64,000 nt of DNA from a bacterium (GCA_023267535.1 JAHFNC010000003.1:75653-139652); one strand, 5' to 3'; shown: positions 31,360-56,756, counted from the first letter of the stretch. Notes: generated by a model from the letters alone, not told the origin. Program-made: numbers and translations.

Positions 31360-32253
31360 ATGGACGAAACAACTATTTCTTTAAAAAAGAAGGATTTATT
31401 AATTTTATTAGTGGCCATTGTTATTATCGTTTTGCTTTCTTTAATGCCTGCGAAGTGGTTAGGTCTTGGAAGTAATAAATTAACACAAAATGTGCCAGGG
31501 GATTTAACTGTTATCAGTACTAAAATAAAAAATGGCGAAAATCCAATAGCCCCATACATCAAAAGTTTTAGTGATAATGGACAAGCCACAGATGTGAGCA
31601 CAGTTGACCCAGTGGTTAATGATGATAATAATATCACCACTCAATTTTCAAAAAATTCTTTCTCAATAGCGGCCGCTTTAAATAATCAGGGGGTAACGGA
31701 TACCAACACCGTAAATAAAGTCGGTGCAAATTTAGGAAATATCACTCAGTCGGATTTGTTTAAACCGAAATTTACAATTAACGATGTTAAGATTTCACAA
31801 AATAATGATGTTAAAACATTAAAAGATTATGGCAATAAGATTGTTGGAGAAACGGCAATAATCTTAGTAAGCTTGGTCGGCAATAAAGATACGGAAGATG
31901 TATCTAATTACATGAATGACAAGAACATCAGCGACCTTAAAAATTATGATGTCAAAATAACTTATACTCAAAAAGTAATAAATGATTTCAAACAACTCTC
32001 GGTCCCGCCATCTTTCGCTAATGCTCACTTAAATATGTTAAATAATTTAAACTCTTATTTGGTTATGTTAAAAGGATTTAGAGGAACTGACACTGATCCA
32101 CTATATTCATATATAGCGCTTAATAATTACGGAAATATTTCTAATTCATTTATAAATTCAATAAGAGAATATAAAACAATATTTGATAACAACTCAATTG
32201 TTTTTGGACCAAATGACCCAGGATATTTATTTAATAATCTAAATTATAAATAA
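31360..32253 (+). CDS. hypothetical membrane-anchored extracytoplasmic protein (first gene of T4SS-like locus)
   Basis: 297 aa. Single N-terminal TM (LLILLVAIVIIVLLSLM), Asn/Thr-rich ectodomain. Stop is 1 nt from the next start. Confidence 0.5.
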   Translation: MDETTISLKKKDLLILLVAIVIIVLLSLMPAKWLGLGSNKLTQNVPGDLTVISTKIKNGENPIAPYIKSFSDNGQATDVSTVDPVVNDDNNITTQFSKNSFSIAAALNNQGVTDTNTVNKVGANLGNITQSDLFKPKFTINDVKISQNNDVKTLKDYGNKIVGETAIILVSLVGNKDTEDVSNYMNDKNISDLKNYDVKITYTQKVINDFKQLSVPPSFANAHLNMLNNLNSYLVMLKGFRGTDTDPLYSYIALNNYGNISNSFINSIREYKTIFDNNSIVFGPNDPGYLFNNLNYK

Positions 32254-32254
32254 C

Positions 32255-34000
32255 ATGAAAAAAATAATTATTTTGTTTGCGGTAATAGTGTTGGTAACAG
32301 GAAAGTACAAAGCTGAAGCCCAATTAGCTGTTGCTTGCGTCAATTGTTCAACTTGGATGTCCCAGGTGGGCATCCAAATTCCTAAAGAAATAATTACCGC
32401 CGTTGAAACAGGATATACAGCTGTTTCAACTGGACTGTCCGCAACAAAAGGAACAATTTTAGACCCAATAGCTAATATGCTGAAAAATACTGTTCTTAAC
32501 CAAATAACTAACACAACTTTAAATTGGGTAAGAAGTGGTGGAAAAACCAGTCTAAGTGGATCTTTATTTATAAATAATCCAGATAGATTTTTACAAAATG
32601 TAACCAACAATGCCACTCGTATTGCTATCAATCAAATGCAAGGACAAAACGGGGGAGACATGTTTACCAATAGCGTTATTGGCGCCGTTACAGCAAATGT
32701 ACGAAATGGGCAACTATCCATAAACGCCCAAGTGCCGTACACCCTAGCAACAACGATACAAAACGGTGCCTGCACTGATGCTAATTTATCTCAAATGGCA
32801 CTTAATGCTATCGGTGGAGGAGATTTAACTGACCCTGCAACCAGAGTCGCCTACAATCAGAAAAAATCAGATTTATATAATTCGTTATGTAAGACATCTG
32901 CTTCAGGAAGTTCTGGATCATCAGCGAACGGAAATAATCAGGCACAGAATCAACAGAAAGTAACAAATTGCTTTTTAGGGGATTTCAATTGTGGTGGGTG
33001 GAATGCTTTTCTTGATATGACAAATACCAATACTAATCCATATGCAGTACAAGCCCAGAGACAAGCCCTAGCCGTACAGCAAGCGGCAGACGCCAAAGCA
33101 AAAGCACAACTTGATATGCAAAATGGTAAGGGGGCAATAAGTCAAACAACTTGTGATAAAACACAAATAGACCCAAACAGTGGAAAGTCCATGTGTATAG
33201 GACAAACCATTGTCACTCCATCCTCTGTTGTCTCAGATACTATGAACAAATCGGCCTCACGTGGAGTAGATACTTTGATGAATTCACAAAACGATATATT
33301 CACAACATTTGCTAACGCTGCCATGACTGCGCTTATGAATGGAGTGTTCTCGTTATCATATAATAGTAGCGGTTCTGGTGGTGGGTCAATCACTTACAAT
33401 CCTACAACACCTATAAATACCGTTGTAGCAAGTTCAACCAATCAAAATGATTTATCGGTAGCAAACAAAACTACACTAGCAGCTCCTTTACTTGATAAAT
33501 TAAATGGCGAATTAGTGGAAATTGATACTATCAAAACAGGGGATGGCAATATTATTGCCATGCTAAACAGTTACGAGTCACAAGTTAACGGACTAACAGA
33601 TTGCTACGGTAGATTAATTGCCTTAAATCAGACCATGGCCAGTGATACTAGAGTTTTAGCAGGAAACACATTAGTAGACGCTAGAAAGTTACGAATAAGA
33701 AATGAAAGAAATTCTCTCCAAGCAGAAATAAATTCTTCGGCATCAACAACAGTTGCTATTAACGGTGTGAAAACTACAATCAGCAACACTTTCAGCACAA
33801 CAGTACTTGGACAAATAGCTGATTCAATTTCAACAGCCATAACAAACGGAACACTGCCAGCTCCCGGAACAGGTGCACAAAAAGAGGCAACCCTAATAAC
33901 CGAAAGACAAACAAATGATGATGATATAAAAAACAATATAGCTCCTAAAATCAATGAGTGTGAACAAATAATAGTTTCAATGAACAATATATCTCAGTAG
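32255..34000 (+). CDS. hypothetical secreted protein (T4SS-like locus). Cys-containing, Thr/Ser/Asn/Gln-rich
   Basis: 581 aa, signal peptide (MKKIIILFAVIVLVTGKYKAEA), several Cys pairs. Possibly a surface or pilus-associated component. Confidence 0.5.
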   Translation: MKKIIILFAVIVLVTGKYKAEAQLAVACVNCSTWMSQVGIQIPKEIITAVETGYTAVSTGLSATKGTILDPIANMLKNTVLNQITNTTLNWVRSGGKTSLSGSLFINNPDRFLQNVTNNATRIAINQMQGQNGGDMFTNSVIGAVTANVRNGQLSINAQVPYTLATTIQNGACTDANLSQMALNAIGGGDLTDPATRVAYNQKKSDLYNSLCKTSASGSSGSSANGNNQAQNQQKVTNCFLGDFNCGGWNAFLDMTNTNTNPYAVQAQRQALAVQQAADAKAKAQLDMQNGKGAISQTTCDKTQIDPNSGKSMCIGQTIVTPSSVVSDTMNKSASRGVDTLMNSQNDIFTTFANAAMTALMNGVFSLSYNSSGSGGGSITYNPTTPINTVVASSTNQNDLSVANKTTLAAPLLDKLNGELVEIDTIKTGDGNIIAMLNSYESQVNGLTDCYGRLIALNQTMASDTRVLAGNTLVDARKLRIRNERNSLQAEINSSASTTVAINGVKTTISNTFSTTVLGQIADSISTAITNGTLPAPGTGAQKEATLITERQTNDDDIKNNIAPKINECEQIIVSMNNISQ

Positions 34001-34037
34001 GTTATTCCCTAATAAACGTAACCAAATAAAAGCCTGT

Positions 34038-36671
34038 TTGCAGTTAAAAAACAGGCTTTTATTATGCTACAATAACACTATGAAAAAGTTGATAGGACTT
34101 TTTGTTTTTGTAATAGCTTTTAGTGTGTTTTTGTTGCCAAAAACAACAATCGCTCAAGTGGTAACGGATAAAACTTACGCTGGGTACTCGGCTTTTTTTG
34201 ATACAGCTGTAAGCCAAGTAAACAATGCTAACGGTATAAATAGTAATGATAAACCTAAAGTGGTGAGTGTGGTTACTTCCGCTAAATATTGGTACGACAA
34301 CACATACAGAAACTCTACCGCCACAACTGAAGGGGCAAAATTATCTGAAGCTTTACAGAAAGCATATGATTCTGTAATAAGTGATACCGATAGCACTTTT
34401 TATCTTTCATTACAAGCTGGTAGCAGAACCCCTGCGGAAAGTTTCTTGTCCTCTTTTGGTGGACAGCTAAGGGTATACGCCAATGAGGCTGGTATAGTGC
34501 AGCAATTGGCTACAACAAATGGAACCACTACTCAAGCAGCTCAATCTCAACTAAATTCTCAAACAGCTAATCTGGCTGGCACGCAAGCCACAGCTTTAAA
34601 CGAACAACCTCAAAAATGTTCTTTCGGTCCTTCTTTTAGTATGTCGGCTTGTATTAATGATTTCGTTACTTGGCTTATAAAAGTAACTCTCTTAAACATT
34701 GCTTCTGTTTTACTTTGGGCGGCATCTTCTGTTCTTAATATGTCTATGCAATACGGAGTATTTCAGTTTGCATCATGGGCACCAGCAAGTTTATATCCAC
34801 TATGGCAAATAGTCAGGCAAGTAATGTCGCTATGTATAATTTTCGCCGGATTGTATGTTGGTTTTATGTATATAATAAATCAGCAAGATATTTTTATAAA
34901 AAGATTTATTCCGTGGCTTGTTGTTTTTGCTTTCTTTGTTAACTTTTCATACCCAATATCAAGAGCGCTTATAGATATATCAAATGTAACTTCACTAAAT
35001 ATATACTCTCAGGCTACTGGTAATGCAAATTTATTAGACAAAGACTACAATGGACCAAAAACAATGGGCTCAGAAATAATGACAAAGCTTGGATTACAAG
35101 ATTTAATTTTTACAGTAAACAATCCATCTAACACTTCTCTTTTGGGAAATTTAAATAGTCCAGGAATAGCATTAGTTGCCGTAGCGTATGTGTTATATGC
35201 CGCCTATGTTTTATTTATGTGTGCACTCTTAATAATGACTAGAACATTTGTTTTGATATTTACAATAATTGGATCTCCGATTCTTTTGATTGATTCGGTT
35301 ATACCAAAATTAGGAGAGTACGGTAAAAAGTTGCGCTCTTTATTTTTTGGGCAACTAGCTGTCTCTATTATTTTTACAATTATGTTTTATTTTGTAATAA
35401 AAGTTATGGAAATATTGGGTACAGCTTTGCCTGCCAAAATAAGTAATCTAAATGGAAGCCCTACTTCTGCTGATATTGCTGGTATGTTTTTTGGAATACT
35501 GATGATGCTTATACTGCTTCACATTATGCTTAAGGTAACCAAGAGCTTGAGTGGAGCAATTGGAGAAGTTGTTACAAAATACGGAAATGCCGCTTTGGGT
35601 GCGACGCTTGGCTTGGCAGCTGGAGGAGCTGGTTTAGCAGGAAGGGCTGTCATAGGACGTGGAGCAGCTGGGCTTGCTGAAAGTCAGTGGATGCAAAAAG
35701 CGCAAGGAAGTGCACTTGGTCGTATGGCATACAATGCCACCAACTCTGTGGGGAACAGTTCTTTTGATTTAAGAAATTCTGGTATCGCTCAGAGAGCGGG
35801 TGGTGCTTTTGCTAGCACCTTAGGAATAAAAGATGTAGGTCTCGGAAAAGGAAGTCAGACATCTTATAACAAAAACCTAGCAGAAAGAACGACTAGTTTT
35901 AAAAAGAAATACGGGGAAATTAAAGATGATAAAGCCAGACAAGAATATGCTAGGAATGTAAGCAACTCGGGAATCTTTGGTGAAGGTAAAAAAATAACAA
36001 AAGAAGTATTTTCAAAAGAAGAGGAAGAGGCTAGACGAGAAAACAAAGGAATTGATGCTCTCACAAATAAATATAGAAACTCAACAGGAGAAGACAGGCA
36101 AAACCTTTTCAAAAACTCCTCTTCTGATGCAAAACAGGCGATGAAAGGTACAGACGAAGCTGCGGGACGTAATGATGAATCTATCGCTAATCTCATGACA
36201 GAGGCTAAGGAAATAGATAAAACAGTAAAGAGCTATAATGAGTCTTCTTCTCCAGATAAAGAGCTCATTCTTAATATGCAAGAACAAAGTGTTAAAGATA
36301 TGCTAGTTGGGTCAGATAAAACAAAAGCTCAAAAGGTGAACAACTATGGCTCAGTTTCTGGAAACACAAAACAACAATATTTTGAGAAACAAAATGATGA
36401 TACAAAAGAAGCTATGTTGGAAAAAGATAAAGCAGAAGCCGAAAAAGAAAACATGGAAAGAGATAAACAAGAAGCCACAAAAACCGATAAAGTTGTAAAT
36501 GCTTACAATAATAAATCTGATGATACTAAACGAAAAATTTTTGATAATCAAAAAGATGACATTAAAAAAATCTTAATGGAACAAGATAGATCAAAAGCAG
36601 AACAAGAAAATAAAAACAGGGGAGAATCTACTCCTAACACCCAAATAAATCCAGTCCGTTTAGCAGCTTAA
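34038..36671 (+). CDS. VirB6/TrbL-like polytopic membrane protein with N-terminal periplasmic domain and K/E-rich cytoplasmic tail
   Basis: 877 aa. Signal peptide, ~190 aa soluble domain, then about eight TM helices in the VirB6/TrbL arrangement, then a Gly/Ala-rich linker and a long charged tail. Confidence 0.45.
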   Translation: MQLKNRLLLCYNNTMKKLIGLFVFVIAFSVFLLPKTTIAQVVTDKTYAGYSAFFDTAVSQVNNANGINSNDKPKVVSVVTSAKYWYDNTYRNSTATTEGAKLSEALQKAYDSVISDTDSTFYLSLQAGSRTPAESFLSSFGGQLRVYANEAGIVQQLATTNGTTTQAAQSQLNSQTANLAGTQATALNEQPQKCSFGPSFSMSACINDFVTWLIKVTLLNIASVLLWAASSVLNMSMQYGVFQFASWAPASLYPLWQIVRQVMSLCIIFAGLYVGFMYIINQQDIFIKRFIPWLVVFAFFVNFSYPISRALIDISNVTSLNIYSQATGNANLLDKDYNGPKTMGSEIMTKLGLQDLIFTVNNPSNTSLLGNLNSPGIALVAVAYVLYAAYVLFMCALLIMTRTFVLIFTIIGSPILLIDSVIPKLGEYGKKLRSLFFGQLAVSIIFTIMFYFVIKVMEILGTALPAKISNLNGSPTSADIAGMFFGILMMLILLHIMLKVTKSLSGAIGEVVTKYGNAALGATLGLAAGGAGLAGRAVIGRGAAGLAESQWMQKAQGSALGRMAYNATNSVGNSSFDLRNSGIAQRAGGAFASTLGIKDVGLGKGSQTSYNKNLAERTTSFKKKYGEIKDDKARQEYARNVSNSGIFGEGKKITKEVFSKEEEEARRENKGIDALTNKYRNSTGEDRQNLFKNSSSDAKQAMKGTDEAAGRNDESIANLMTEAKEIDKTVKSYNESSSPDKELILNMQEQSVKDMLVGSDKTKAQKVNNYGSVSGNTKQQYFEKQNDDTKEAMLEKDKAEAEKENMERDKQEATKTDKVVNAYNNKSDDTKRKIFDNQKDDIKKILMEQDRSKAEQENKNRGESTPNTQINPVRLAA

Positions 36672-36718
36672 TGACAAAAAGACTTTGATTTCGTCTGTTT
36701 AAGAAGTAAACTAAAACA

Positions 36719-37417
36719 ATGAACGTCAGCGAACTACAAGATTATTTTGCCAATGCCGAACCAGAAATAAAAGTATTTTTGGCGTCTGACGAGCTGGAAA
36801 AATCTGTGGCGGTTTTAGGCGAATCTCATGGCCTACAAATTTCTAAATATCTAGCTCTTCAAAATGTTGTCACTCTTTTACTTATTGGAGCTCTCAAACC
36901 AGAAGGTGCAGTTGATTCATTGAAAGAACATCTAGAAATTACTGATAGCGCTGCTTATTTACTTGCTAAAGATATTGATGCTAGTATCTTGCAAAAAGTT
37001 AGGATGTCTATCTTTGGAAAAACGGAAGGCGAAATAAAAGAAATAAAATTAGGAAACCCTGATGAAAAAAGAGAATCACTTAGAGCTCAGATTGCTCAGG
37101 AAATAAATAAAAATCCTACCCCTCCAGAAAAAGATGACAGCAGAAAAGTCCCTACCATGTCCAGAAATGATTTAATGGAACAGCTTGGCTTACTTGAAAA
37201 AATACCAAACGATGAAGACGTAGAGAAAAGAATGGCTATTATAAAAGACCAATTAGAAAAAATAAAAAAAGAAGAGGAAGTGCAAGAAAAAGAGCAAGAA
37301 AAAGAAATTCTTTTAAAACCAAAAGAAATAGTGGTAACCGCAGAACCAAAAATGGCGCCTTACAGCGAAGCTCCAACGCATTATAATGTTGACCCTTATA
37401 AAGAAACCGTCGAGTAA
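36719..37417 (+). CDS. hypothetical acidic cytoplasmic protein (T4SS-like locus)
   Basis: 232 aa, E/K-rich C-terminal half. Confidence 0.45.
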   Translation: MNVSELQDYFANAEPEIKVFLASDELEKSVAVLGESHGLQISKYLALQNVVTLLLIGALKPEGAVDSLKEHLEITDSAAYLLAKDIDASILQKVRMSIFGKTEGEIKEIKLGNPDEKRESLRAQIAQEINKNPTPPEKDDSRKVPTMSRNDLMEQLGLLEKIPNDEDVEKRMAIIKDQLEKIKKEEEVQEKEQEKEILLKPKEIVVTAEPKMAPYSEAPTHYNVDPYKETVE

Positions 37418-37456
37418 GTAATTGGTTAATTAAACTTTTGAGATTATAATATAGCT

Positions 37457-37891
37457 ATGCAATTTAGAGTCCCACAATTTATTGATATTGAAGATAAAAT
37501 ATTTGGGCCTTTCACCTTGAAGCAATTTGCTTACATCATCGGAGCTCTTGGATTTTCTTTTATAATTTGGACATTCATCAGTAATAGACTAATAGCTTTT
37601 ATTCTTATACTTCCAGTGGCCGGACTATTCGTGGCTTTAGCTTTTGTTAAAGTAAATGAACGTCCGTTTGTTGATATGTTAGAAAGTGCATTTAAATATA
37701 TAACTAGCTCAAAAATATATACATGGAAACAACCAACGGTAGCCGAGGGGACTGAAAACAAAAAACCAAACCAAATTGTAACCGAAGCCACCAAGTCAGC
37801 GGTCATAGAAAATGTTAAAGCAAATAGATTACATGAAATTTCTGTCGGGCTTGATATTTTGGATCGTAACGATATCGGAGAAAATAGTTAA
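37457..37891 (+). CDS. PrgI/VirB3-like small two-TM protein
   Basis: 144 aa. N-terminus MQFRVPQFIDIEDKIFGPFTLKQFAYIIGALGFSFIIW followed by a second helix. Similar size and topology to PrgI/TcpE/VirB3 proteins that precede VirB4 in Gram-positive-type T4SS. Confidence 0.45.
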   Translation: MQFRVPQFIDIEDKIFGPFTLKQFAYIIGALGFSFIIWTFISNRLIAFILILPVAGLFVALAFVKVNERPFVDMLESAFKYITSSKIYTWKQPTVAEGTENKKPNQIVTEATKSAVIENVKANRLHEISVGLDILDRNDIGENS

Positions 37892-37954
37892 TTATACTGT
37901 TTTTCTTATCACTATTAACTAGTAACTACAAGCTAGCTTTGTTATACTTTTACT

Positions 37955-38611
37955 ATGGCTATTTCTACTGCTACACAGCAGTTTGTTCCAATAGATAAAA
38001 TAAGAGATGGAGTTATCGTATTAAAAAATGGAGAGTTAAGAGCAATCCTAATGACGAGCTCTCTTAATCTGTCTCTAAAAAGTACCGATGAGCAACAAGG
38101 AATAATTCTTCAGTTCCAAAATATGCTAAATTCCCTTGATTTTCCAATACAATTTTTTATACAATCACGTAGATTAGATATAAAACCCTATCTTGATTTA
38201 TTAGGGGAAAGAAGGACGGAAGTGAAAGAAGATTTATTAAAATTACAGATAAACGAGTACATCGGCTTTATAAAAAAATTTACTGATGAGGTAAATATTA
38301 TGACCAAACATTTTTTTATTGTCATTCCTTATATGCCTCCAGTTATATCACAAAAAAATGCTGGCATTTCTTCATTGCTTTCAATGGGAGCAACGAAAAC
38401 AACCAAAGAAGAAATAAGTTCTTTTGAAGAGAATCGTATGCAGTTGGAACAAAGAACAGCAACAGTAATGCAAGGAATTACTAGATTTGGAATAAGAGCT
38501 CAGAAATTAAAGACTGAGGAAATTGTGGAATTGTTTTATAAAATATTTAATCCTGGCGAGCAAGATCATTCCGTTCACTCCATAGCAACTAATTTAGGAA
38601 ACAAACAATAA
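37955..38611 (+). CDS. VirB4-family ATPase, N-terminal segment (separated from the downstream ORF by a frame change; possible pseudogene, split gene or sequencing frameshift)
   Basis: VPIDKIRDGVIVLKNGELRAILMTSSLNLSLKSTDEQQGIILQFQNMLNSLDFPIQF resembles the extreme N-terminus of conjugative-transposon VirB4/TrsE ATPases, from memory. The downstream reading frame is open from 38598, so the two ORFs overlap by about 14 nt in an A-rich stretch (GGAAACAAACAATAA). Confidence 0.45.
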   Translation: MAISTATQQFVPIDKIRDGVIVLKNGELRAILMTSSLNLSLKSTDEQQGIILQFQNMLNSLDFPIQFFIQSRRLDIKPYLDLLGERRTEVKEDLLKLQINEYIGFIKKFTDEVNIMTKHFFIVIPYMPPVISQKNAGISSLLSMGATKTTKEEISSFEENRMQLEQRTATVMQGITRFGIRAQKLKTEEIVELFYKIFNPGEQDHSVHSIATNLGNKQ

Positions 38612-38612
38612 T

Positions 38613-40427
38613 ATGGGAGCATTCGATTTTTTAAATTCAAAAAAAGATTCACCGATACAGCCAGTTTTACCTGAGCAAGTTTATCAAGTGGCAGAAATGC
38701 AACTGAAAGACATCATCGCGCCATCAGCACTCGGCATTCAACCAAAGATGCTGTCACTCGGGACAAGCGTTCTTCGTTCATACTTTGTAATTTCCTATCC
38801 AAGATTTTTAAATGATGGGTGGCTTAGTCCAATAATAAACTTAGATAAAGTTTTTGATATTTCTTTACAAGTTATTCCTCTTGATACTTCAAAGGTAATG
38901 AAGGATTTTCAAAGAAAGGTGGCTGAGGTAGAAAGTCAAATAATGAATCGTGAAGAGAAGGGGATGGTTCGTGACCCATCACTTGATGTGGCTTACAAAG
39001 ATTTGGAAGATTTGCGTGATGGACTAATACAAGCTCAAGAAAAAATGTTTGATGTTTCTTTATACTTTTCTATTTACGGAGAAAATGAGGACGAAATAAA
39101 TAAAGCAGAAAATGAAATCAGAACAATATTAGAAAGTAGAATGGTTTATGTAAAGCCAGCACTCTTCCAACAAGATGACGCTTTCTTAAGTATTATTCCT
39201 CTACAAACAGATGTTCTTCAAATAAAAAATAAAATGAATACTTCTCCTTTGTCTTCATTTTTTCCATTCGTATCTTTTGATCTATCAAGTGATAGAGGGA
39301 TTCTTTATGGAATAAATCGCCACAATGGAAGTTTGGTTTTGTTTGATAGATTTTCTCTTGAAAACTACAATTCTATAATTTTTGCCAAATCTGGATCTGG
39401 AAAAAGTTATGCTACTAAGCTTGAAATACTAAGGACACTGATGTTTGATACCGAAGTTATTATCATTGACCCAGAAAAAGAATATGAATATCTAGCTGAA
39501 TCCGTAGGTGGAAGGTATTTTGATATTTCTTTAACTAGCGAACACCATATAAATCCTTTCGACCTTCCACATCCAACCGAAGAAGAATCACCGTCTGAAA
39601 TTTTGCGTTCAAATATTGTAAATTTAGTGGGACTATTCCGTGTAATGCTTGGAGGCCTCACTCCAGAAGAAGATGCCATCATTGATCAAGCGTTATCTGA
39701 AACTTACGCCCTAAAAGATATCTCAGGCGACACTGATTTTACAAATATGGAACCACCGCTATTATCAGATTTTGAAACAGTGCTAGCTGGAATTGATGGC
39801 TCAGAAGATTTGCAACAAAAACTTTCAAAATATACCAAAGGAACTTGGGCTGGATTCATTAATCAACCTTCAAATGTTGATATCAACAAAAAATTAGTTT
39901 GTTTTTCTATTCGTGATATGGAAGATGAGCTAAAAGCAGTAGCAATGTATATCATTACTCACTATATATGGAATGCTATTAGAAAAAATATTAAGAGAAG
40001 ATTACTCGTAGTGGATGAGGCCTGGATTATGATGAAAAATGACGACACGGCCTCATTCTTATTTGGTTTAGCAAAAAGAGGACGAAAATATTATTTGGGA
40101 TTGGCAACTATTACTCAAGATGTGGGAGACTTCCTCAAATCTCCATACGGATTACCGATTATTACTAACTCTTCTATTCAAGTGTTACTTAAACAGTCGC
40201 CATCGTCCATTGACCAAATACAGCAAATATTTAGTTTAACCGATGAAGAAAAATTTTTACTGTTGGAATCAAATGTTGGGGAGGGTATATTCTTTGCTGG
40301 ATTAAAACACGTAGCCATAAAAATAGTGGCCTCTTACACGGAGGACCAAATCATCACCAGTGACCCATCTCAATTACTTAAGATAAAAGAGATGAAGGAA
40401 GAAATAAAAGAGGCAAAAACCGTATGA
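38613..40427 (+). CDS. VirB4/TrbE/TraC-family type IV secretion ATPase (CagE_TrbE_VirB plus ATPase domains)
   Basis: 604 aa. N-terminal region YFVISYPRFLNDGWLSPIIN, Walker A IFAKSGSGKSYATK, Walker B LLVVDEAWIMM and the C-terminal GLATITQD motif. Confidence 0.75.
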   Translation: MGAFDFLNSKKDSPIQPVLPEQVYQVAEMQLKDIIAPSALGIQPKMLSLGTSVLRSYFVISYPRFLNDGWLSPIINLDKVFDISLQVIPLDTSKVMKDFQRKVAEVESQIMNREEKGMVRDPSLDVAYKDLEDLRDGLIQAQEKMFDVSLYFSIYGENEDEINKAENEIRTILESRMVYVKPALFQQDDAFLSIIPLQTDVLQIKNKMNTSPLSSFFPFVSFDLSSDRGILYGINRHNGSLVLFDRFSLENYNSIIFAKSGSGKSYATKLEILRTLMFDTEVIIIDPEKEYEYLAESVGGRYFDISLTSEHHINPFDLPHPTEEESPSEILRSNIVNLVGLFRVMLGGLTPEEDAIIDQALSETYALKDISGDTDFTNMEPPLLSDFETVLAGIDGSEDLQQKLSKYTKGTWAGFINQPSNVDINKKLVCFSIRDMEDELKAVAMYIITHYIWNAIRKNIKRRLLVVDEAWIMMKNDDTASFLFGLAKRGRKYYLGLATITQDVGDFLKSPYGLPIITNSSIQVLLKQSPSSIDQIQQIFSLTDEEKFLLLESNVGEGIFFAGLKHVAIKIVASYTEDQIITSDPSQLLKIKEMKEEIKEAKTV

Positions 40428-41638
40428 TGAAGAAAATTCTTAATTTTTTTATTAACGACGTAGAGCGAGAGCAGTGGAAAAGTAATCTTTTTATCTTCCG
40501 AGTCGAGGTGAGAAGCGACCAAAGAAGCTTCGCAAGATTCGGAGGCAGGCGTGCCGAGAATGGGGTCGGCAAAAATTTTTTGCTAAAAATTATTTGTGAC
40601 TTAAAAAGAATTGCAATACCGCGGAGTCTGCTCTCTATTTGTACAAGCAAATCGAGTTCTATTAAACACCTCGTCAACTTGCTGCGAATATCCTTTATTT
40701 TATTTATTATTTTAACTCCTGTAACTCACGCCGAATTTACAGGCACTATTAATATAGATCCACCAAACCCAAGCACTTATCAAGCGGTAACTGCTACTCT
40801 ACAAAGTTTTAGTTTTAATGTTGATAATTCTCTTATTACTTGGTATCTAGATAATAAACTTATTGTTTCAGAAATTGGTAAAAAACAAATTTCTTTGACA
40901 ACAAAAGGAATAGGGCAAACAACCACAATAAAAGTACAAGCTAAAATGGCAGATGGAAATGTTTTTGAAGCCTCAATGACACTTGCTCCTCAGTCAGTTG
41001 ATTTATCTTGGGAGGCTACCGAAGGATATGTTCCACCTTTTTATGAAGGTAAGGCTATGCCGGGGGAATCATCTCAGATAAAGGTGGTGGCTGTTCCCTC
41101 TTTTTCTTCAAGTGGAAAACCGATAGCTCCGGAGAATCTTTCTTATGAGTGGTTTGTAGATGATGGAAAATTAGAAGATCAGTCAGGGCGCGGGAAAAAC
41201 GTAGCTTTTTTAAATCTTGATTACTTATCAAATGATAATGTCATCAGAGTTGATGTAACCTCTGACGATGGTTCAACTGCTGAAAACACAGTGACGATAT
41301 CTCCTTATAAACTTGATCCAATATTTTATTTTAATGACCCAATACTTGGTCCCGACTTTAGTAAAGCCATTGAAGACAGATTTGAAACCACAAAAGAGTT
41401 TTCACTGGCTCTTGTTCCTTATGGTTTGTCATCCTCTAATAACATTAAAGATTACTCTTCTTTTTCTTGGTCGCTGGATGGATTACCTATTGATACTCCA
41501 GCTGATAATGTTTTATCATTAAGACCAACAGATAATAGCTATGGATCGAAATCATTATCGGTTAATATAGAAAACACAAAAAGAATGTTACAGAAGGGAG
41601 TTGCATCTTTGCAAATAGTGTTTGATACTAGAAACTAA
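40424..41638 (+). CDS. hypothetical secreted/anchored beta-rich protein (start uncertain; alternative TTG near 40679 gives a clean signal peptide)
   Basis: The ATGA overlap with the virB4 stop suggests translational coupling. The first ~85 codons overlie repeat family B. The hydrophobic segment LLRISFILFIILTPVTHA is followed by a ~300 aa soluble domain. Confidence 0.45.
   Translation: MMKKILNFFINDVEREQWKSNLFIFRVEVRSDQRSFARFGGRRAENGVGKNFLLKIICDLKRIAIPRSLLSICTSKSSSIKHLVNLLRISFILFIILTPVTHAEFTGTINIDPPNPSTYQAVTATLQSFSFNVDNSLITWYLDNKLIVSEIGKKQISLTTKGIGQTTTIKVQAKMADGNVFEASMTLAPQSVDLSWEATEGYVPPFYEGKAMPGESSQIKVVAVPSFSSSGKPIAPENLSYEWFVDDGKLEDQSGRGKNVAFLNLDYLSNDNVIRVDVTSDDGSTAENTVTISPYKLDPIFYFNDPILGPDFSKAIEDRFETTKEFSLALVPYGLSSSNNIKDYSSFSWSLDGLPIDTPADNVLSLRPTDNSYGSKSLSVNIENTKRMLQKGVASLQIVFDTRN
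40449..40696. repeat. repeat family B, long copy (short copy at 48238-48303), carrying a ~190-nt insert that includes family-A-like words (GAAGCGACCAAAG, GCTTCGC)
   Basis: TTATTAACGACGTAGAGCGAGAGCAG ... CTCGTCAACTTGCTGCGA matches TTATTAACGATGTAAAGCGAGAGAAG ... CTCGTCAGCTTGCTGTGA at 48238. Confidence 0.45.
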
Positions 41639-42566
41639 TATGGCTACATACCAATTACTTGAACCATCATTACCAGCAACCGTTGGAACTGGCGCCAACC
41701 TATCTTTTAACACAGCGGGTGTTAATTCTGTCTCTGGTGCTTTTTCATTATTATTCAGTATTGGAATTATTGCTTGCTTAATAGCTTCAGGTGGAGTTTT
41801 TTTATTTTCCGGATTTCTTAGACTAACAGCTACGGGGCCGGGGGATGTTGGTAAATCAAACGAAGGATTAAAGAGGGCGTCATATGGACTAATTGGAGTT
41901 CTATTAATGTATTTAATATTAAATGAAATAAATCCAAATTTATTAAAAGACGGAATAGTGTTGCCAGCAATAACTGGCTTCGGTGGAACAGTTCAAACAA
42001 ATCCGGCAAATACAAATAGTGGTGGTGTTAGTGCTAAAAATCTCCAACTATATCAAGAAATGGCAATTACTGAGAATGGCGTCCGAAATGCATTAAGTGG
42101 TGTTGGCATTCAAATTAATAGACCAAATGCCTGTGTGACAAATGGAACTAATGGTCCTCAAACAGTTGCTTCCGGTTGCACTAGTGTCGGAGGAATGAGT
42201 GGTAGTATGGTAAATGACTTAATTTTGTTAAATGCTCAGTGTAAGACCTTTATGAAAACAGATTGTCATATAGTAATAACAGGGGGGACAGAGTGGTGGT
42301 TACATGGTGGAGGAGTGGTTGATGTTGATACAAATAAATCATTACATAAACCTGCCTCTGCTGGAGGACATGCGGTAGATTTTAGTATGGGAGCCAATAA
42401 AACTACTGACCCTTTATATTTATTTGTAACTACAAATAGAGCAAACTTTACACCCCTTCCTTCAGACAACTGTTGTTCTTCTAAATATCAGTACGGACGT
42501 GGTTATATTTTTTGTGATGAACTCCCAAGCTGTGGTGGCACTGGCGCACACTGGCATGTTCAGTAA
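41622..42566 (+). CDS. membrane protein with pilin-like double-TM N-terminus and C-terminal putative Zn-peptidase-like (M23/LytM-like) domain. Candidate T4SS cell-wall hydrolase
   Basis: The N-terminus has two hydrophobic helices (LLFSIGIIACLIASGGVFLF; YGLIGVLLMYLILN) like VirB2/TrbC pilins. The C-terminus has GGHAVDF and the terminal CGGTGAHWHV, which resembles the M23 GxTGxHLHFE motif seen in the LysM-M23 gene of this window. Confidence 0.35.
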   Translation: MILETNMATYQLLEPSLPATVGTGANLSFNTAGVNSVSGAFSLLFSIGIIACLIASGGVFLFSGFLRLTATGPGDVGKSNEGLKRASYGLIGVLLMYLILNEINPNLLKDGIVLPAITGFGGTVQTNPANTNSGGVSAKNLQLYQEMAITENGVRNALSGVGIQINRPNACVTNGTNGPQTVASGCTSVGGMSGSMVNDLILLNAQCKTFMKTDCHIVITGGTEWWLHGGGVVDVDTNKSLHKPASAGGHAVDFSMGANKTTDPLYLFVTTNRANFTPLPSDNCCSSKYQYGRGYIFCDELPSCGGTGAHWHVQ

Positions 42567-42598
42567 ATATTAATATTGTATTGTATAATTAATTAATA

Positions 42599-43900
42599 AT
42601 GAATCGTCGGCTTTTTATAATTTTATTTGCGGTTGCCTCTATAATAGGAGTATCTATTATAGTTTGGTACTTCTTTTTCAAGACAAATACCGGTAGCTTA
42701 CTTTTTGGAACACCAACCAATCCGTTTGGTAAAACTCCACCATCACTTCGTGGTTCAGAATTTGTTAATGGAAATAACGGTTACGGTACAAGCTCTCAAA
42801 CAGAAAGAACTCTCGGCGCTGACAGAACGTTAGTAAAAGTTTGGGATAGACCCACTGCTGGATTTTCTTTTATAGAAAAAGAATTTATAACAACTTCTAC
42901 AACAACTGATAAACAAGGGAAGGTGATAACTGTTCAGAAAAAAGCGACTTCAACGGAAATGCTTTTCGCCGACAGAACTACTGGTTATATTTATGACTAC
43001 GATATAAAAAATCAGAATATATATCAAATAACTAATACTCTAACTGCCGGAATATATGATATTTATTTTTTCAATAATGGAAAGTCAGCCATTATCCGCT
43101 ATTTAAGCGATGATAAAAAAACAATCATCTCTAATCTAGTTCAAATACCAACAGTCTCAGCAAGCAGTTCTCCACAAGAAATAAAAACAAATGTTTATTT
43201 ACCAAATAATATTATTTCTATCACTCCAAATTATAATTCCACTGAACTTTCTTATTTAGTAAAAACAAGTAGTGGTAGTAATTTATATACCCTAACAACT
43301 AAAGGTTCTAAACTAATAAAATCTTTTCAGTTATCAGAATTAAATGTTCTGTATGATAAAAATAATTTGTATGTTTATAACAAGCCTTCAATTTATGCTC
43401 TCGGATTTTTGTATGATGTTAAAAATAATGAAAATATATTAAGTAAAACTGTGGCCTTATCTCCGCTTGTCTCGCACAACGGTCAAAATGTTATGGGAAG
43501 TTTTTGGTCAGAGTCTAGTTCTAATAATTTTATGTTTAATAAAAGTACCGCTTCAATGAGAAGTCTCTCTATTTACACCCCAGAGGAAAAATGTGTCTGG
43601 AATAACAAAGATACTTTTGTATTATGTGGAGTAACTCCGGTTATTTTCAACAAAAAAGAAGGACTTCCTGATGATTGGTATAAGGGGCGAGTTTCTTTTG
43701 ATGATAGTATTTATATGATTGATAATGTTGGCAAAAGAGAATACGACTTCTTTGATTTTACAGCTGAGACAAGTGACAAAATAGATTTAACTAAACCAAA
43801 GATATCAAACAATGATGAACTTCTGGGATTTATAAATAAGAAGGATGGTTCGTTCTGGATGTTTAAAGTGAAGAAAACTTTAGATAATGTTTACGATTAA
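42599..43900 (+). CDS. hypothetical membrane-anchored extracytoplasmic protein (last gene of T4SS-like locus)
   Basis: 433 aa. N-terminal TM (LFIILFAVASIIGVSIIVWYFFF), beta-rich ectodomain. Confidence 0.5.
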   Translation: MNRRLFIILFAVASIIGVSIIVWYFFFKTNTGSLLFGTPTNPFGKTPPSLRGSEFVNGNNGYGTSSQTERTLGADRTLVKVWDRPTAGFSFIEKEFITTSTTTDKQGKVITVQKKATSTEMLFADRTTGYIYDYDIKNQNIYQITNTLTAGIYDIYFFNNGKSAIIRYLSDDKKTIISNLVQIPTVSASSSPQEIKTNVYLPNNIISITPNYNSTELSYLVKTSSGSNLYTLTTKGSKLIKSFQLSELNVLYDKNNLYVYNKPSIYALGFLYDVKNNENILSKTVALSPLVSHNGQNVMGSFWSESSSNNFMFNKSTASMRSLSIYTPEEKCVWNNKDTFVLCGVTPVIFNKKEGLPDDWYKGRVSFDDSIYMIDNVGKREYDFFDFTAETSDKIDLTKPKISNNDELLGFINKKDGSFWMFKVKKTLDNVYD

Positions 43901-44617
43901 TTAAGCTCTGTTTAAATTTTTAATATGACTCTTAATATAAACATCTTGTAAGAAAGTAATAATATTATTTGTTACCCAATAAAGTCCTAAAGCAGCTGGA
44001 AGTGCTGTCGCTGATAATCCAACAACTACAGGTAACACATAAAGTAATTGTATTCTCATTGATTTCATAAAATGATCTTGGAAGGATTCATCTCCTCCCT
44101 TCTTGGCGCTCATTGATTGAGTTTGTCTTCTAGCTAAGAAAAAAGATGAGAGTCCAGTTATAATTCCAATGACTAGACTTCTTTTAGTAACATCCAGTAG
44201 ACCAAAAGCCTCCGTGTGTAATACGGCAGGAAAGGTTACAAAATTATAAATTGAGTTAGGGTCATTAAACATTCCTTTAGAAAAAACGAAGTACAGAGCA
44301 AAAAATATTGGGATTTGAATAATCATTACAAATAATGATGATAATGGATTAATTTTTTCTCTCTTGTAAACTTCCATTATTTTAAGGGACAATTCTTGTT
44401 GATTGTGTTTATGATTTTCCTTTAGAACTTTTATTTCTTCATCTAATGCCTTCATTAAATACTGGCTCTTTGTTGCTCTTAGGTTTAAAGGAAGTAGTAC
44501 GAGCTTCACAACCACTGTAACCATAATAATAGAGGCCCCAATGTCGTGCAGGGGAATTATATTTAAAAATATAACTAGCAGATTATATATTGGTTTGTAG
44601 AAAATAAGATGAAACAT
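43901..44617 (-). CDS. yidC: membrane protein insertase YidC (short Oxa1-like form)
   Basis: 238 aa, five TM segments and a charged C-terminal tail. Sits in the conserved rpmH-rnpA-yidC arrangement. Confidence 0.8.
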   Translation of the reverse strand: MFHLIFYKPIYNLLVIFLNIIPLHDIGASIIMVTVVVKLVLLPLNLRATKSQYLMKALDEEIKVLKENHKHNQQELSLKIMEVYKREKINPLSSLFVMIIQIPIFFALYFVFSKGMFNDPNSIYNFVTFPAVLHTEAFGLLDVTKRSLVIGIITGLSSFFLARRQTQSMSAKKGGDESFQDHFMKSMRIQLLYVLPVVVGLSATALPAALGLYWVTNNIITFLQDVYIKSHIKNLNRA

Positions 44618-44618
44618 A

Positions 44619-44933
44619 TTATAAAATATTTTTTAACTCACTATTCAGATTATCATATTTGGTGTATAAAACCTCTCTTTTTGGATAAATTATATAGAAA
44701 TTCGGTTTAAGTTCATTTTTATGTTCCATAAACAAATTATAGATTTTCCTCTTCATTTTATTTCTGTCTACCGCTCTTTTAGCCGTTTTTTTGGAAACCA
44801 CACAAGAAACCTTAAAAGAAGGTAACCCTTCTTTTTCAATAATAGAAATATCAAAAAAAGACCCTCTTATAATCTTTTTTTTAGATATTAAAGAGAAATC
44901 CTTCTTAGAAAGCCGATTTTTCTTTGGTGGCAT
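44619..44933 (-). CDS. rnpA: ribonuclease P protein component
   Basis: 104 aa. Basic N-terminus MPPKKNRLSKKDF and the RNR-like motif (AKRAVDRNKMKRKI). Confidence 0.8.
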   Translation of the reverse strand: MPPKKNRLSKKDFSLISKKKIIRGSFFDISIIEKEGLPSFKVSCVVSKKTAKRAVDRNKMKRKIYNLFMEHKNELKPNFYIIYPKREVLYTKYDNLNSELKNIL

Positions 44934-44936
44934 AGA

Positions 44937-45071
44937 TTATACCGATAATTTCTTTCTTCCTCTACTTCTTCTATTAGCAATTATCTTTTTTCCAGATTTA
45001 GTTGACATACGAACTAAAAATCCGTGTGTTGTTCCTCTCTTTTTTCTTTTAGGTTGATATGTTTGTGACAT
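44937..45071 (-). CDS. rpmH: 50S ribosomal protein L34
   Basis: Minus-strand translation gives MSQTYQPKRKKRGTTHGFLVRMSTKSGKKIIANRRSRGRKKLSV (44 aa). Not in the ORF track because it is under 60 aa. The plus-strand ORF 44791-45057 is its antisense. Confidence 0.85.
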   Translation of the reverse strand: MSQTYQPKRKKRGTTHGFLVRMSTKSGKKIIANRRSRGRKKLSV

Positions 45072-45201
45072 AAACGATATTCTATATCATAAAGACATAT
45101 AAATCAACTTCTGTTTTTTATGTGTCTTTAAGTAATTTAACCCTATTACTACTTAAATGTCTCATGTCTAGTTGAAGAGTTTTGGGGGAGGAGTATACTA
45201 G

Positions 45202-46545
45202 ATGACTATGGATTACCAACAACTTTGGAGTACAGCTTTATCTCAGATAGAAATTGAATTATCTAGGGTCAATTTTAATACTTGGTTCAAAAATACAAAA
45301 ATAATTGACTATAAAGAGGGAGAGGTGGTGATTGGCGTTCCGAATGAATTTGTTAAAGATTGGTTAAATCAAAAATATCATAAATTTATTTTAAGAATAC
45401 TTAGAACAGTTTATGACGGCGTCCGATCAATAAGCTTTTCTGTTGTTAAATTAGAAACACTTAATAAAAAAGTTCAGAACATCACTATCCCCGGACAAAC
45501 TCTTCCACTTAATGATTTATATATTAATAAAGACGACGGATTAAATCCAAGATACACCTTTGATAATTTTATTGTTGGATCTTTCAACGATGTAGCGTTT
45601 GCCGCTTCACAAGCAATAATAAATAATTTAGGCATTCTTTATAATCCATTATTTATTTATGGAAACACTGGGCTTGGAAAAACTCACTTGATACAAGCGG
45701 TTGGAAATACTGTTAAGAAAAAATATCCAGATAGAAAAATTTTTTATACATCTCTTGAAAAGTTTTATATGGATTATGTTAATGCTACTAATTTAAATAA
45801 AATAAATAGTTTCAAAGAAAAGTATAGAAAATATGATGTTTTTATAATGGATGACATACAATTCATAAATGGAAAAGAGAGAACTCAAGATGAATTATTC
45901 CATTTATTTAATTCATTATATGAGATGAATAAACAAATAATCTTTTCGTCAGATAAACATCCTAATTTTATTATTGGTTTGGAAGATAGATTAAGATCTC
46001 GTTTTAATCAAGGAATGATAATTGATGTTAATATTCCTTCTTTTGAATCTCGTTTTGCTATTTTAAAATCAAAAACAAAAGATTTCTCAGATAAGATTAC
46101 AGATGAGGTTTTGGAATATGTTGCTGAAAATGTTCAAGGAAATATTCGTGAGCTTGAGGGTGTTACAAATTCTTTAATTGCTAGTATTCAATTAAAACAA
46201 CAAGTTTTGTCATTACAAGAAATAAAAACTCTTCTAAAGAATAATATTAAAATAAAGAAAAATGTTTCTGTTCCTGAGATAGTTAAAATAATTTCTGATT
46301 ATTATAATATTCCCGATTCTTATGTTTATAATAAAACTAGAAGAAAAGATGTTGTTAAGCCTCGTCAAATAGTAATGTATATCTTGCGAGAAGATTTTGA
46401 TATTTCTTATCCAGTAATTGGAGATAGATTAGGGGGGAGAGATCACACCACCGTTATTCACTCTTATGAAAAAATAAAAGAATGTCTTAAAAAAGACCCT
46501 CATCTAAATAAGGAGATTGAGGATATTAGAGCAATTCTTTCATAA
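45202..46545 (+). CDS. dnaA: chromosomal replication initiator protein DnaA
   Basis: Walker A GNTGLGKTHL, sensor motifs and the C-terminal DNA-binding signature VIGDRLGGRDHTTVIHSYEKI. Confidence 0.92.
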   Translation: MTMDYQQLWSTALSQIEIELSRVNFNTWFKNTKIIDYKEGEVVIGVPNEFVKDWLNQKYHKFILRILRTVYDGVRSISFSVVKLETLNKKVQNITIPGQTLPLNDLYINKDDGLNPRYTFDNFIVGSFNDVAFAASQAIINNLGILYNPLFIYGNTGLGKTHLIQAVGNTVKKKYPDRKIFYTSLEKFYMDYVNATNLNKINSFKEKYRKYDVFIMDDIQFINGKERTQDELFHLFNSLYEMNKQIIFSSDKHPNFIIGLEDRLRSRFNQGMIIDVNIPSFESRFAILKSKTKDFSDKITDEVLEYVAENVQGNIRELEGVTNSLIASIQLKQQVLSLQEIKTLLKNNIKIKKNVSVPEIVKIISDYYNIPDSYVYNKTRRKDVVKPRQIVMYILREDFDISYPVIGDRLGGRDHTTVIHSYEKIKECLKKDPHLNKEIEDIRAILS

Positions 46546-46869
46546 TTAAAAGCACTAAAAATAAAATTTAGTGCTTTTAATTTGTTTTACATATGTGAAT
46601 TACTTGTTAAGAACTATGTTGATAAGTTTAAATATAGCTGTTAATAATCCTAGATTAGTTTAGTGGTAATTTTTAAAGTCTGTATTTTTGTACACAAACC
46701 TAATTAAACTTTTAGTTATTAAATAAAATGGTTTCTAAATAAAACCTTATATAGTAAAGACTTTTTAGCTATCAACACTATTAACACTCTTATCATTATT
46801 ATCATATTTTATATATAGTAATAAGAGAAAAATGTGAGGATAAAAGATTTGTAGTATAATTTATGAACT
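46546..46869. other. candidate oriC (AT-rich dnaA-dnaN spacer with degenerate DnaA-box-like 9-mers)
   Basis: 324 bp, AT-rich by eye. TGTGAATTA (46594), TTATCAACA on the complement (46617-46626), TATCAACAC (46770) and TGTGAGGATAA (46833). An AT-run (TCATATTTTATATATAGTAATAAG) could act as the unwinding element. Sits in the conserved rpmH-dnaA-dnaN context. Confidence 0.5.
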
Positions 46870-47961
46870 ATGAGATTTGAATGTAAGGGAGAAAACTTTT
46901 CTAATGTAATCCAGCAAGTGTCAAGAGCTAGAAGTAAAACCCAATCCCAAAACTACCTACAAGATGTGTTTCTAAATTTAGAAGATCACATCTTAACCTT
47001 GAGAGCTACTAATTTAGAAATTACCTGCGAAAAAAGTTTTTCCGTCAAAGGTATACAAAACGGTAGTTGTATTTTAAAAGGAGACACTTTGGTAAAAATA
47101 ATTCCATTACTTAAGAGGGAGAACACTGTTTTCTTTTGTGAATTAATCGATGGGGTTTTTTCTATTAAAACCGAAAAAGATATTGTTGAAATAAAAACAA
47201 CACCTTATGAAGACTTCCCAACATTACCACCACAAGGGGAATTAATTGGGAGTATTTCAATATTATCTTTATCAACTCTTTTAAGAGAAGTTTCTTTTTG
47301 TTCAGCTACTACAGAAATTAAACCAGAGATATCATCAATCTTTATATATTCAAAAGAAAAAGATTTGATTTCAGTAGCAACCGACTCATATAGATTGGCG
47401 GAAAAGGTTGTTAATAATGAAAATAATTTAAATATTTCGGTTTTAATACCACAGAAATACGTAGTTGATATTTTAAGTATTCTAAATGATGAAGAAGGTG
47501 AGATTTCTATATACAAAAAAGATGGGTTATTAACATTATCAAACAGTAATTTAAATCTTTGTATTCATATAATTACAGGAAACTTTCCAGATTACAGACA
47601 ATTATTTCCAAAAGAATTTTCAACAACTTGTTTGATTGATAAAGAAGAGTTACAGAAATCATTAACATTAACAACTTATTTCACAGAACAATATTCTCAA
47701 GTCAAATGTATTGTGAATGACAACAACGTTACCTTAAGTAGTAAAAATGAAAATATTGGTCAGGTTATTAATACAATCAAAACTGAAAAAGAGGGTGCTG
47801 ATATAGAAGTTAATTATAATAATAAATATTTCCTAGATGTCTTTTCTCATATAAACGGAAATAAAATAAAATTATCTTTTACTACAGCTAATAAACCAGT
47901 ATTTATGGAAGGCAATAATGATATTAGTTTTACATATCTTTTAATGCCCCTTAACAGATAA
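46870..47961 (+). CDS. dnaN: DNA polymerase III beta sliding clamp
   Basis: 363 aa, three-domain length. MRFECKGENFSNVIQQV start and its position right after dnaA. Confidence 0.85.
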   Translation: MRFECKGENFSNVIQQVSRARSKTQSQNYLQDVFLNLEDHILTLRATNLEITCEKSFSVKGIQNGSCILKGDTLVKIIPLLKRENTVFFCELIDGVFSIKTEKDIVEIKTTPYEDFPTLPPQGELIGSISILSLSTLLREVSFCSATTEIKPEISSIFIYSKEKDLISVATDSYRLAEKVVNNENNLNISVLIPQKYVVDILSILNDEEGEISIYKKDGLLTLSNSNLNLCIHIITGNFPDYRQLFPKEFSTTCLIDKEELQKSLTLTTYFTEQYSQVKCIVNDNNVTLSSKNENIGQVINTIKTEKEGADIEVNYNNKYFLDVFSHINGNKIKLSFTTANKPVFMEGNNDISFTYLLMPLNR

Positions 47962-47988: not shown

Positions 47989-48243
47989 TTGCTGTATTAT
48001 TTAGATATGGATGATTCTTTATTTTCTAAATATAAGAAAAAAATAGACGAATACAGTAATTTAAAGAGGTTTTTAATTGAGACTGTTGAAACTGAGACTG
48101 GTTTAAAATTAGAAGAAGATGAAATAAATATTTTAGATAAAGATATAAGGTTAAATATATCCTCCACTAAGAGGGCATTTATTTTTAAATCTAAACTAAG
48201 AGACGCTTTAAAAGAGAAAGGGTTTAATCTATTGAGTTATTAA
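47989..48243 (+). CDS. hypothetical small protein (post-dnaN position; possibly DUF721/S4-like)
   Basis: 84 aa ORF with plausible spacing. No motif assigned. Confidence 0.4.
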   Translation: MLYYLDMDDSLFSKYKKKIDEYSNLKRFLIETVETETGLKLEEDEINILDKDIRLNISSTKRAFIFKSKLRDALKEKGFNLLSY

Positions 48244-48303
48244 CGATGTAAAGCGAGAGAAGAGAAAAAGGTTTAATATCTCGTCAGCTTGCTGTGAGGA
48301 ACC
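48238..48303. repeat. repeat family B, short copy
   Basis: TTATTAACGATGTAAAGCGAGAGAAG-N16-CTCGTCAGCTTGCTGTGAGG lies between convergent gene ends and overlaps the C-terminal codons of the PBP gene. Confidence 0.45.
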
Positions 48304-56750: not shown

Positions 56751-56756
56751 GTTTTA

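Follow-up and report, generated by a model that had tools for sequence, protein, structure and literature searches.

The window analysed here is a 64,000-nucleotide stretch of bacterial DNA (GCA_023267535.1 JAHFNC010000003.1:75653-139652), and our subject is a gene cluster that lies within it at 31360-43900. Ten open reading frames (ORFs), all on the + strand and named g1 to g10, fill this interval in an ORF scan of the window. On the 5′ side are a UvrD-type helicase (uvrD) and rsmA (RrnaAD, PF00398 on record); on the 3′ side are yidC(-), rnpA(-) and rpmH(-) at 44937-45071, then dnaA and dnaN. An initial annotation, made from the sequence alone, had placed ten co-directional genes between rsmA and the yidC-rnpA-rpmH/dnaA block; ORF calls and flank annotation agree. 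Its gaps of 0-40 nucleotides (nt) were slightly too narrow – measured spacing runs from -17 to +63 nt – and the overlapping starts that it described are there. Component identities were drawn from hidden Markov models (HMMs) and models, and transmembrane (TM) segments were called by Kyte-Doolittle scan. The locus is very probably the Paceibacteria version of a Patescibacteria-clade type IV secretion system (T4SS): derived from monoderm (MPF-FATA) conjugation machinery, fixed in the chromosome beside dnaA and vertically inherited. The ten genes are:

31360-32253, +, g1: ORF of 297 amino acids (aa) with one N-terminal TM anchor (residues 13-31)
32255-34000, +, g2: 581-aa secreted protein with a signal peptide and conserved cysteines (ORF, sequence)
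34080-36671, +, g3: candidate VirB6-type polytopic membrane protein, 863 aa (TM scan, homolog matches, position)
36719-37417, +, g4: 232-aa acidic cytoplasmic protein (isoelectric point 4.8, no TM segment)
37457-37891, +, g5: PrgI/VirB3-like protein with two TM segments (Pfam PrgI, TM scan)
37955-38611, +, g6: VirB4 N-terminal domain as a gene of its own, TrsD/TraC-like (HMM)
38613-40427, +, g7: the C-terminal two-thirds of VirB4, the ATPase part, bearing both Walker motifs, A and B (HMM, motifs)
40424-41638, +, g8: exported protein of Ig-like/PKD-like beta-sandwich repeats (family Pfam matches)
41640-42566, +, g9: VirB2-like T4SS pilin hairpin, followed C-terminally by a putative zinc-peptidase domain of divergent LAS type (Hedgehog/DD-peptidase fold)
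42599-43900, +, g10: N-terminal TM anchor, disordered linker and extracytoplasmic seven-bladed beta-propeller

Core genes, synteny and conjugation functions

The identity of the cluster begins with g7. This protein matches the NCBIfam model CD1110 (VirB4-like conjugal transfer ATPase) at 368.6 bits (6.4e-110) against a cutoff of 325, and Pfam P-loop_TraG at 7.7e-27; its Walker A motif, read directly from the translation, is AKSGSGKS and its Walker B motif LLVVDE. There is also a partial match to NCBIfam CedB (1e-10). The CD1110 score upholds the assignment to the VirB4 family made in the initial annotation and answers the question, posed there as a check, of whether the ATPase is of the FtsK/HerA type instead. 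The gene description itself needs correction in one respect, since the VirB4 N-terminal domain resides not in the ATPase gene, as had been stated, but in g6, which is separated from g7 by 1 nt. The matches of g6 are to N-terminal parts only of VirB4 models – VirB4_plasma of NCBIfam at 5.7e-12 (profile positions 103-287) and CD1110 (positions 1-117) – plus the TrsD model (2.7e-6), and PF26593 TraC-like is on record. With g7 supplying the ATPase part, VirB4 is thus encoded by two genes, and the division is general among the 80 relatives compared below: g6 stands as a separate ORF of ~212 aa in 79/79 loci that reach it. The gene before it, g5, is the two-TM PrgI/VirB3-like protein that had been predicted (Pfam PrgI at 3.8e-10 and 40.6 bits, cutoff 27), with identities of 38-64% over 78 loci.

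The large membrane protein g3 carries a signal peptide, ~6 TM segments and a 317-aa C-terminal tail rich in K, E, N and D. It had been described as a VirB6/TrbL-like protein with eight TM segments and a long charged tail; the tail stands, the VirB6-type assignment is suggested by way of homologs, and the scan counts fewer TM segments. The window protein itself has no Pfam or NCBIfam match, and its family profile gave chance-level matches only against PDB sequences. Among its homologs (n=54), four match the NCBIfam TM protein Mbov_0396 of an integrative and conjugative element (ICE) at 1e-7, two match CD3337/EF1877 and two match Pfam TrbL (0.0034); these are TM proteins of monoderm ICEs and TrbL, not generic permeases, which had been named as the alternative to check. 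Although the hits are weak, they suggest a place for g3 among VirB6-type proteins known from ICEs of Gram-positive bacteria, and both topology and position – directly 5′ of PrgI and VirB4, as in Candidatus Southlakia epibionticum (below) – fit. Compared by hhalign with one Brevibacillus plasmid protein, a possible VirB6 analog, the g3 family gave a negative result.

We sought relatives of g7 in one genome per GTDB species. This yielded 362, and the comparisons that follow cover the best 80 (L001-L080), all of them metagenome-assembled genomes of Paceibacteria, Nomurabacteria or Parcubacteria and grouped for identity medians into a close and a far clade. The order rsmA, g1 to g10, yidC, rnpA, dnaA, dnaN recurs throughout the 80 species-level loci, so that the check on synteny in relatives finds the locus beside dnaA in each; an arrangement shared by 80 species-level genomes is far beyond chance. 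Genes g3, g5, g6, g7, g8 and g10 are found in essentially every locus reaching them, and g1, g2 and g4 mainly in the close clade. The block that follows g10 in the window, and in relatives, is:

43901-47961, mixed strands: origin-type block yidC(-), rnpA(-), rpmH(-), dnaA(+), dnaN(+)
45202-46545, +: dnaA, used for the comparison of VirB4 and DnaA conservation

The window shows no enrichment of DnaA boxes, and its GC-skew profile does not pin the origin; the placement of the cluster beside the origin therefore rests on synteny with dnaA and dnaN.

For g7 the median identity reaches 83% among close-clade and 70% among far-clade loci; the corresponding medians are 81% and 57% for DnaA, and 61% and 32% for DnaN. 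Since its medians exceed those of DnaA, g7 behaves as a core gene would and changes at a lower rate than the initiator of replication; such conservation, so far as protein comparison can tell, indicates core-gene constraint and vertical descent. With identity as the proxy for phylogeny, VirB4 here may fall in a clade restricted to Patescibacteria: the best 80 relatives, all members of that phylum, are 68-86% identical in g7, and the closest plasmid VirB4 proteins reach no more than 36%. YidC, at 36% in the far clade, is far less conserved than VirB4, as is DnaN.

Conjugation functions were sought by Pfam in the ten largest other ORFs of the window and in those with precomputed annotations, and by tblastn, with the relaxase and VirD4 of a plasmid as queries, over the window and the flanks of the 80 loci. 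The window ORFs checked and the 80 flanks yielded neither a relaxase (MOB) or oriT nor a coupling protein (T4CP) of VirD4/TcpA type, and no integrase or repeat boundaries flank the block. The statement that relaxase, coupling protein and plasmid or ICE genes are missing accordingly holds for the window ORFs checked, and for the 64-kb window only. The VirB4 HMM match, the synteny in 80 genomes and the failure to find a relaxase or T4CP together support the proposal of a chromosomal, non-conjugative T4SS-type machine, one that is already in print.

The probable pilin-peptidase protein and its variants

The called start of g9 at 41640 gives a protein of 308 aa. It is the only pilin-module ORF in the window and provides the VirB2-like pilin (PF18895) near virB4; its uncharged N-tail and basic loop would fit a hairpin with both N- and C-termini outside the membrane. 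The nature of the C-terminal domain is less readily read. It keeps E224, H228, H242, D253, H310 and H312, and yet has no sequence-level match (the family profile performs at chance level against PDB sequences); Pfam applied to the C-domains alone gives one marginal Peptidase_M15_4 match (E 0.16), and a Foldseek search of the PDB with the g9 model gives nothing below E 0.7. LAS zinc peptidases (M15/VanY) bind their zinc by His, Asp and His, placed in an H-x-D motif and a C-terminal H-x-H. A single-sequence search for homologs returned three proteins, and an alignment query was therefore used. Support comes from far relatives whose gene at the same position joins this pilin module to a VanY/M15B peptidase of canonical type (PDB 5hnm, E 2.5e-12). 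That match was obtained with a five-sequence profile; individual fusion proteins of the far clade, run by phmmer on PDB sequences, had found nothing. In profile-profile comparison the H..D motif of g9 aligns with the M15B zinc motif (probability 67%, E 5e-5). On these two grounds the combination of a pilin-like N-terminus and a putative zinc peptidase, already proposed in the initial annotation, is supported at moderate strength. A DD-peptidase-fold protein downstream of virB4 in Southlakia provides a parallel.

Fusions of the g9 type are common in metagenomes: a search there gave 148 representatives at E <= 1e-30 (50% identity clustering), most of which span both modules. In 62 loci, pilin-module ORFs lie no more than 10 kb from virB4, and every one of them has at least 159 residues after the module, so that near virB4 the module is never free. 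What follows it varies. The C-domains comprise the g9 type, M15B, and an SLT/lysozyme type that Pfam verifies in 13 members; an amidase-like C-domain matches phage endolysin, and NlpC/P60-like and YkuD-like domains were recognised by motif only, the tools giving no confirmation. A second fusion – pilin plus SLT lytic transglycosylase – lies between g10 and yidC in many close relatives (L001, L008, L011, L015, L018, L019, L021, L023, L026-L030, L034, L037); such a fusion was sought after g10 and anywhere in the 64-kb window and is absent. An instructive pair is L043:12889-14244 and L044:12870-14111, from loci whose VirB4 proteins are 97% identical: the N-parts of the two fusion proteins are 70% identical and the C-domains are unrelated, one having a YkuD-like motif and the other being VanY/M15B. 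From the sequences, this looks like a recent domain swap.

These observations invite the idea that the VirB2-like hairpin of Paceibacteria is not a free pilus subunit, but a conserved carrier of interchangeable cell-wall-active "warheads", exchanged among close relatives whose machine otherwise hardly changes, displaying or delivering hydrolases specific to the host wall, with enzyme type tracking host wall chemistry. Of the warheads that it would need, the LAS-like g9 type, VanY/M15B and SLT/lysozyme are verified, and the amidase-, NlpC/P60- and YkuD-like types are known mostly by motif. We regard the idea in this full form as speculative and rather unlikely to be correct. A pilin module with swappable cell-wall enzymes is nonetheless a testable proposition arising from the locus and, were enzyme type to track host wall chemistry, the prediction of hosts for uncultured lineages could be helped.

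Accessory proteins and neighbouring features

According to the initial annotation five proteins of the cluster lacked recognisable homology. This remains so for g1, g2 and g4, and no longer for g8 and g10. No Pfam match was found for the g1 family or for g4, which has no known domain, and no credible one for g2; family profiles of g1, g2, g8 and g10 against PDB sequences gave chance-level matches only. Homologs of g1 occur in 27 close-clade loci at 23-31% identity and in three far-clade loci, a distribution by which g1 appears to be lineage-specific; g2 is found in the close clade and a few distant loci. The extreme C-terminus of g4 bears a near-invariant motif, YS.APT.YNVDPYRE, in an alignment of 40 homologs, with D225, Y227 and E229 invariant. 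In the distant relatives L051, L056 and L057, g4 is enlarged.

The g8 protein, present in 76 loci, consists, by the Pfam matches of its family (n=77), of Ig-like repeats: 18 of the 77 homologs match BiPBP_C, ten PKD_6 and six Ig_3. The g10 protein is a membrane-anchored seven-bladed beta-propeller. Both, like the make-up of g9, are new details. A VirB8-like component (TM anchor plus NTF2-like ectodomain) was considered and neither candidate fits, g10 being a beta-propeller and g8 Ig-like.

As called, g8 has 404 aa, ~80 N-terminal residues more than its 76 relatives (~322 aa), which have a plain 22-aa signal peptide and start at an ATGA overlapping the virB4 stop. The conserved part begins near 40679. 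A second irregularity concerns the start of g3: its ORF opens at a TTG at 34038, inside a hairpin, and public gene calls use the ATG at 34080, which gives the 863 aa listed above. The two features are:

40428-40678 (with flank, to 40690), +: ~250 extra nt after the end of virB4 and before the signal peptide conserved in g8, without a stop in the frame of g8
34028-34060, +: terminator-like hairpin AAAAGCCTGTTT / AAACAGGCTTTT between g2 and g3 (read from sequence)

The ~250-nt segment contains a terminator-like hairpin at 40552-40571; it has no Rfam match and its fold z-score (-1.86) is unremarkable. Possibly it is a short repeat or insertion. Its ends (TTAACGAYGTARAGCGAGAG, CTCGTCARCTTGCTGYGA) recur ~20 nt apart at 48240-48297, between dnaN and a penicillin-binding protein gene. 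The hairpin just 3′ of the g2 stop has a 12-bp stem with A and T tracts on either side; a consensus terminator scan did not call it, its T-run being short. It may split g1-g2 transcription from that of g3 onwards; with the hairpin after virB4, three transcription units would be suggested.

Farther along the window, within 53802-61246, lie a PilB/T2SSE ATPase (type IV pilus motor) on the minus strand and then four + strand ORFs with no Pfam match, to which public gene calls give lengths of 367, 251, 277 and 799 aa. GC content in this stretch is 0.43-0.45, against ~0.34 elsewhere.

Function, alternatives and comparison with known systems

How might such a machine work? By the roles of the corresponding T4SS families, the split VirB4 (g6 plus g7), no other motor having been found in locus or window, would dock on the membrane via the PrgI/VirB3 protein g5 and energise a channel built from the VirB6-type g3. 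The g9 hairpin would insert with both termini outside and present a zinc peptidase that cuts peptidoglycan beyond the membrane; the Ig-repeat protein g8 and the anchored propeller g10 could form an extracytoplasmic scaffold, with g1 and g2 as putative lineage-specific surface parts and g4 as a putative cytoplasmic accessory protein. The genetics of Southlakia and the lifestyle of the phylum suggest that the machine may serve host-dependent growth. That it is a non-conjugative, contact-dependent conduit to a host cell, serving an episymbiotic lifestyle, we infer with about even confidence; identity and conduit function, taken as one blended judgement, we hold to be probable.

Several points weigh against this interpretation. 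Genes for a relaxase, a T4CP or free pilins may lie beyond the 64 kb of the window, and VirD4-like genes do lie far from virB4 in most Patescibacteria genomes (PMC12102498). The VirB6 assignment of g3 draws on weak matches in a minority of homologs, the window protein having none. Essentiality, finally, is known from one species of Saccharimonadia only and not from Paceibacteria.

What passes through the conduit is a separate issue. H. pylori ComB and archaeal Ced are DNA importers that lack a T4CP and a relaxase and have a VirB4-type ATPase as sole motor. To our knowledge the phylum lacks nucleotide synthesis; this and the analogy with ComB and Ced incline us toward import of host macromolecules (nucleic acids), to which we would give slightly less than an even chance. 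Export of hydrolases or effectors seems less likely, though it is a serious rival, and adhesion or other roles make up the remainder.

An account in which the machine is mainly an exporter would have it deliver the cell-wall enzymes tethered to the pilin, possibly along with further effectors, to the surface or interior of the host cell, there to breach the wall and release nutrients. The exchange of enzyme domains between close relatives (L043/L044) resembles that of polymorphic "warheads" and would favour export or display if the targets are host walls; M15B, SLT and the g9 type are all verified at the pilin-fusion position and the amidase-like type matches phage endolysin. Cutting of peptidoglycan could, however, equally serve remodelling of the cell's own wall during assembly of the machine (the VirB1 role), and no T4CP that might recruit cytoplasmic substrates was found; the account is possible, and on balance doubtful. 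A surface appendage or adhesion organelle without any substrate transfer would accommodate the pilin-type module, the Ig-like repeats and the propeller, all typical of adhesive or scaffold proteins. It is made improbable by the pilin module never being free near virB4, by the extreme conservation of the ATPase and the VirB6-type channel protein, which suggest translocation, and by the type IV pilus gene (PilB) already present in the same window.

That the cluster might instead be the remnant of an ICE or plasmid, or cargo that landed near the origin by chance, is suggested by the homology of its VirB4, PrgI and VirB6-type proteins to those of Firmicutes ICEs and plasmids, and by the order PrgI, VirB4, hydrolase, which is matched on a Brevibacillus plasmid. 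Yet site and order are the same in 80 species, the divergence of VirB4 tracks or undercuts that of DnaA, the flanks offer no relaxase, T4CP, integrase or repeat boundaries, and the GC content of the cluster is that of the surrounding genome. Because neither relaxase nor coupling protein was found in the ORFs and flanks searched and the neighbouring genes are housekeeping, such an origin is essentially excluded; the proposal is largely refuted and we attach next to no probability to it.

The preferred interpretation – a vertically inherited, host-directed T4SS – touches on a broader matter. The Patescibacteria T4SS is considered central to how a large, mostly uncultured radiation lives on host cells, and we know of no other T4SS that is essential for the bacterium carrying it.

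Monoderm conjugative MPF-FATA systems, of which PrgH-I-J-K-L of pCF10 is an example, are the natural point of reference. Brevibacillus plasmid NZ_CP144923 shares with the window the order membrane protein, PrgI, VirB4, cell-wall hydrolase, with VirB4 28-36% identical, but differs in having MobC, a relaxase, a VirD4-type T4CP, a single-gene VirB4 and an NlpC/P60 hydrolase without pilin module, and in having no propeller or Ig proteins. In TrsD and TrsE of pGO1/pSK41, as in the window, a separate small homolog of the VirB4 N-domain precedes the ATPase, whereas those are plasmid conjugation systems with relaxase and T4CP. The likeness to ComB and Ced consists in a VirB4-type sole motor with no relaxase or coupling protein found, and no homology extends beyond VirB4.

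The closest counterparts are within the phylum. Quinonero-Coronel et al. (2025, Microb Genom; PMC12102498) surveyed 3,035 genomes and described a monophyletic Patescibacteria VirB4 clade nested in MPF-FATA, with TrsD, PrgI/VirB3, VirB6 and VirB2-like pilins near virB4 and relaxases almost never; in Paceibacteria virB4 is close to dnaA, dnaN, rnpA, ksgA and rpmH, and VirB1-like hydrolases are associated with virB4. The window agrees in VirB4, TrsD, PrgI/VirB3, a candidate VirB6, VirB2-like pilin, proximity to dnaA and in yielding no relaxase among the ORFs checked. Pilin-hydrolase fusions, the propeller, the Ig-repeat protein and g4 are not described there. The same picture is taken up and carried further in a review of 2025 and a preprint of 2026, and tubular structures at the parasite-host interface have been interpreted as possible T4SS pili.

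From Ca. Southlakia epibionticum ML1 (Saccharimonadia) comes an unusual T4SS of Gram-positive-like type (SEML1_0004-0019, beside dnaA-dnaN; Wang et al. 2023, Cell; PMC10633639). It has pilins, lacks relaxase and coupling protein, and almost every one of its genes is essential for epibiotic growth. Both loci run VirB6-like protein (a candidate in the window), PrgI, TrsD-like protein, VirB4 and then a protein ending in a Hedgehog/DD-peptidase-fold domain (putative in the window), after which Southlakia has its lysozyme/cysteine-protease protein and Ig-like exported proteins. Both stand beside dnaA-dnaN, Ig-like exported proteins and pilin modules of PF18895 occur in both, and neither cluster was found to contain a relaxase or T4CP. 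Peculiar to Southlakia are six pilins that stand free (103-185 aa), a pair of VirB6-like proteins, an NTF2-like protein (no such part was detected in the window cluster), a peptidase protein of 1113 aa and the lysozyme/cysteine-protease protein, which is separate from it; peculiar to the window are the direct fusion of its one pilin module to the putative peptidase, the TM-anchored propeller g10, and g1, g2 and g4. The system, its proximity to the origin included, is thus already known (Wang et al. 2023; Quinonero-Coronel et al. 2025) and some accessory details are new, the swappable pilin-hydrolase fusions being a point that the surveyed papers do not mention. Beside these no new kind of system is at hand; the locus offers instead a clean reference anatomy for Paceibacteria, with its split VirB4, single fused pilin-peptidase, Ig-repeat protein and anchored propeller.

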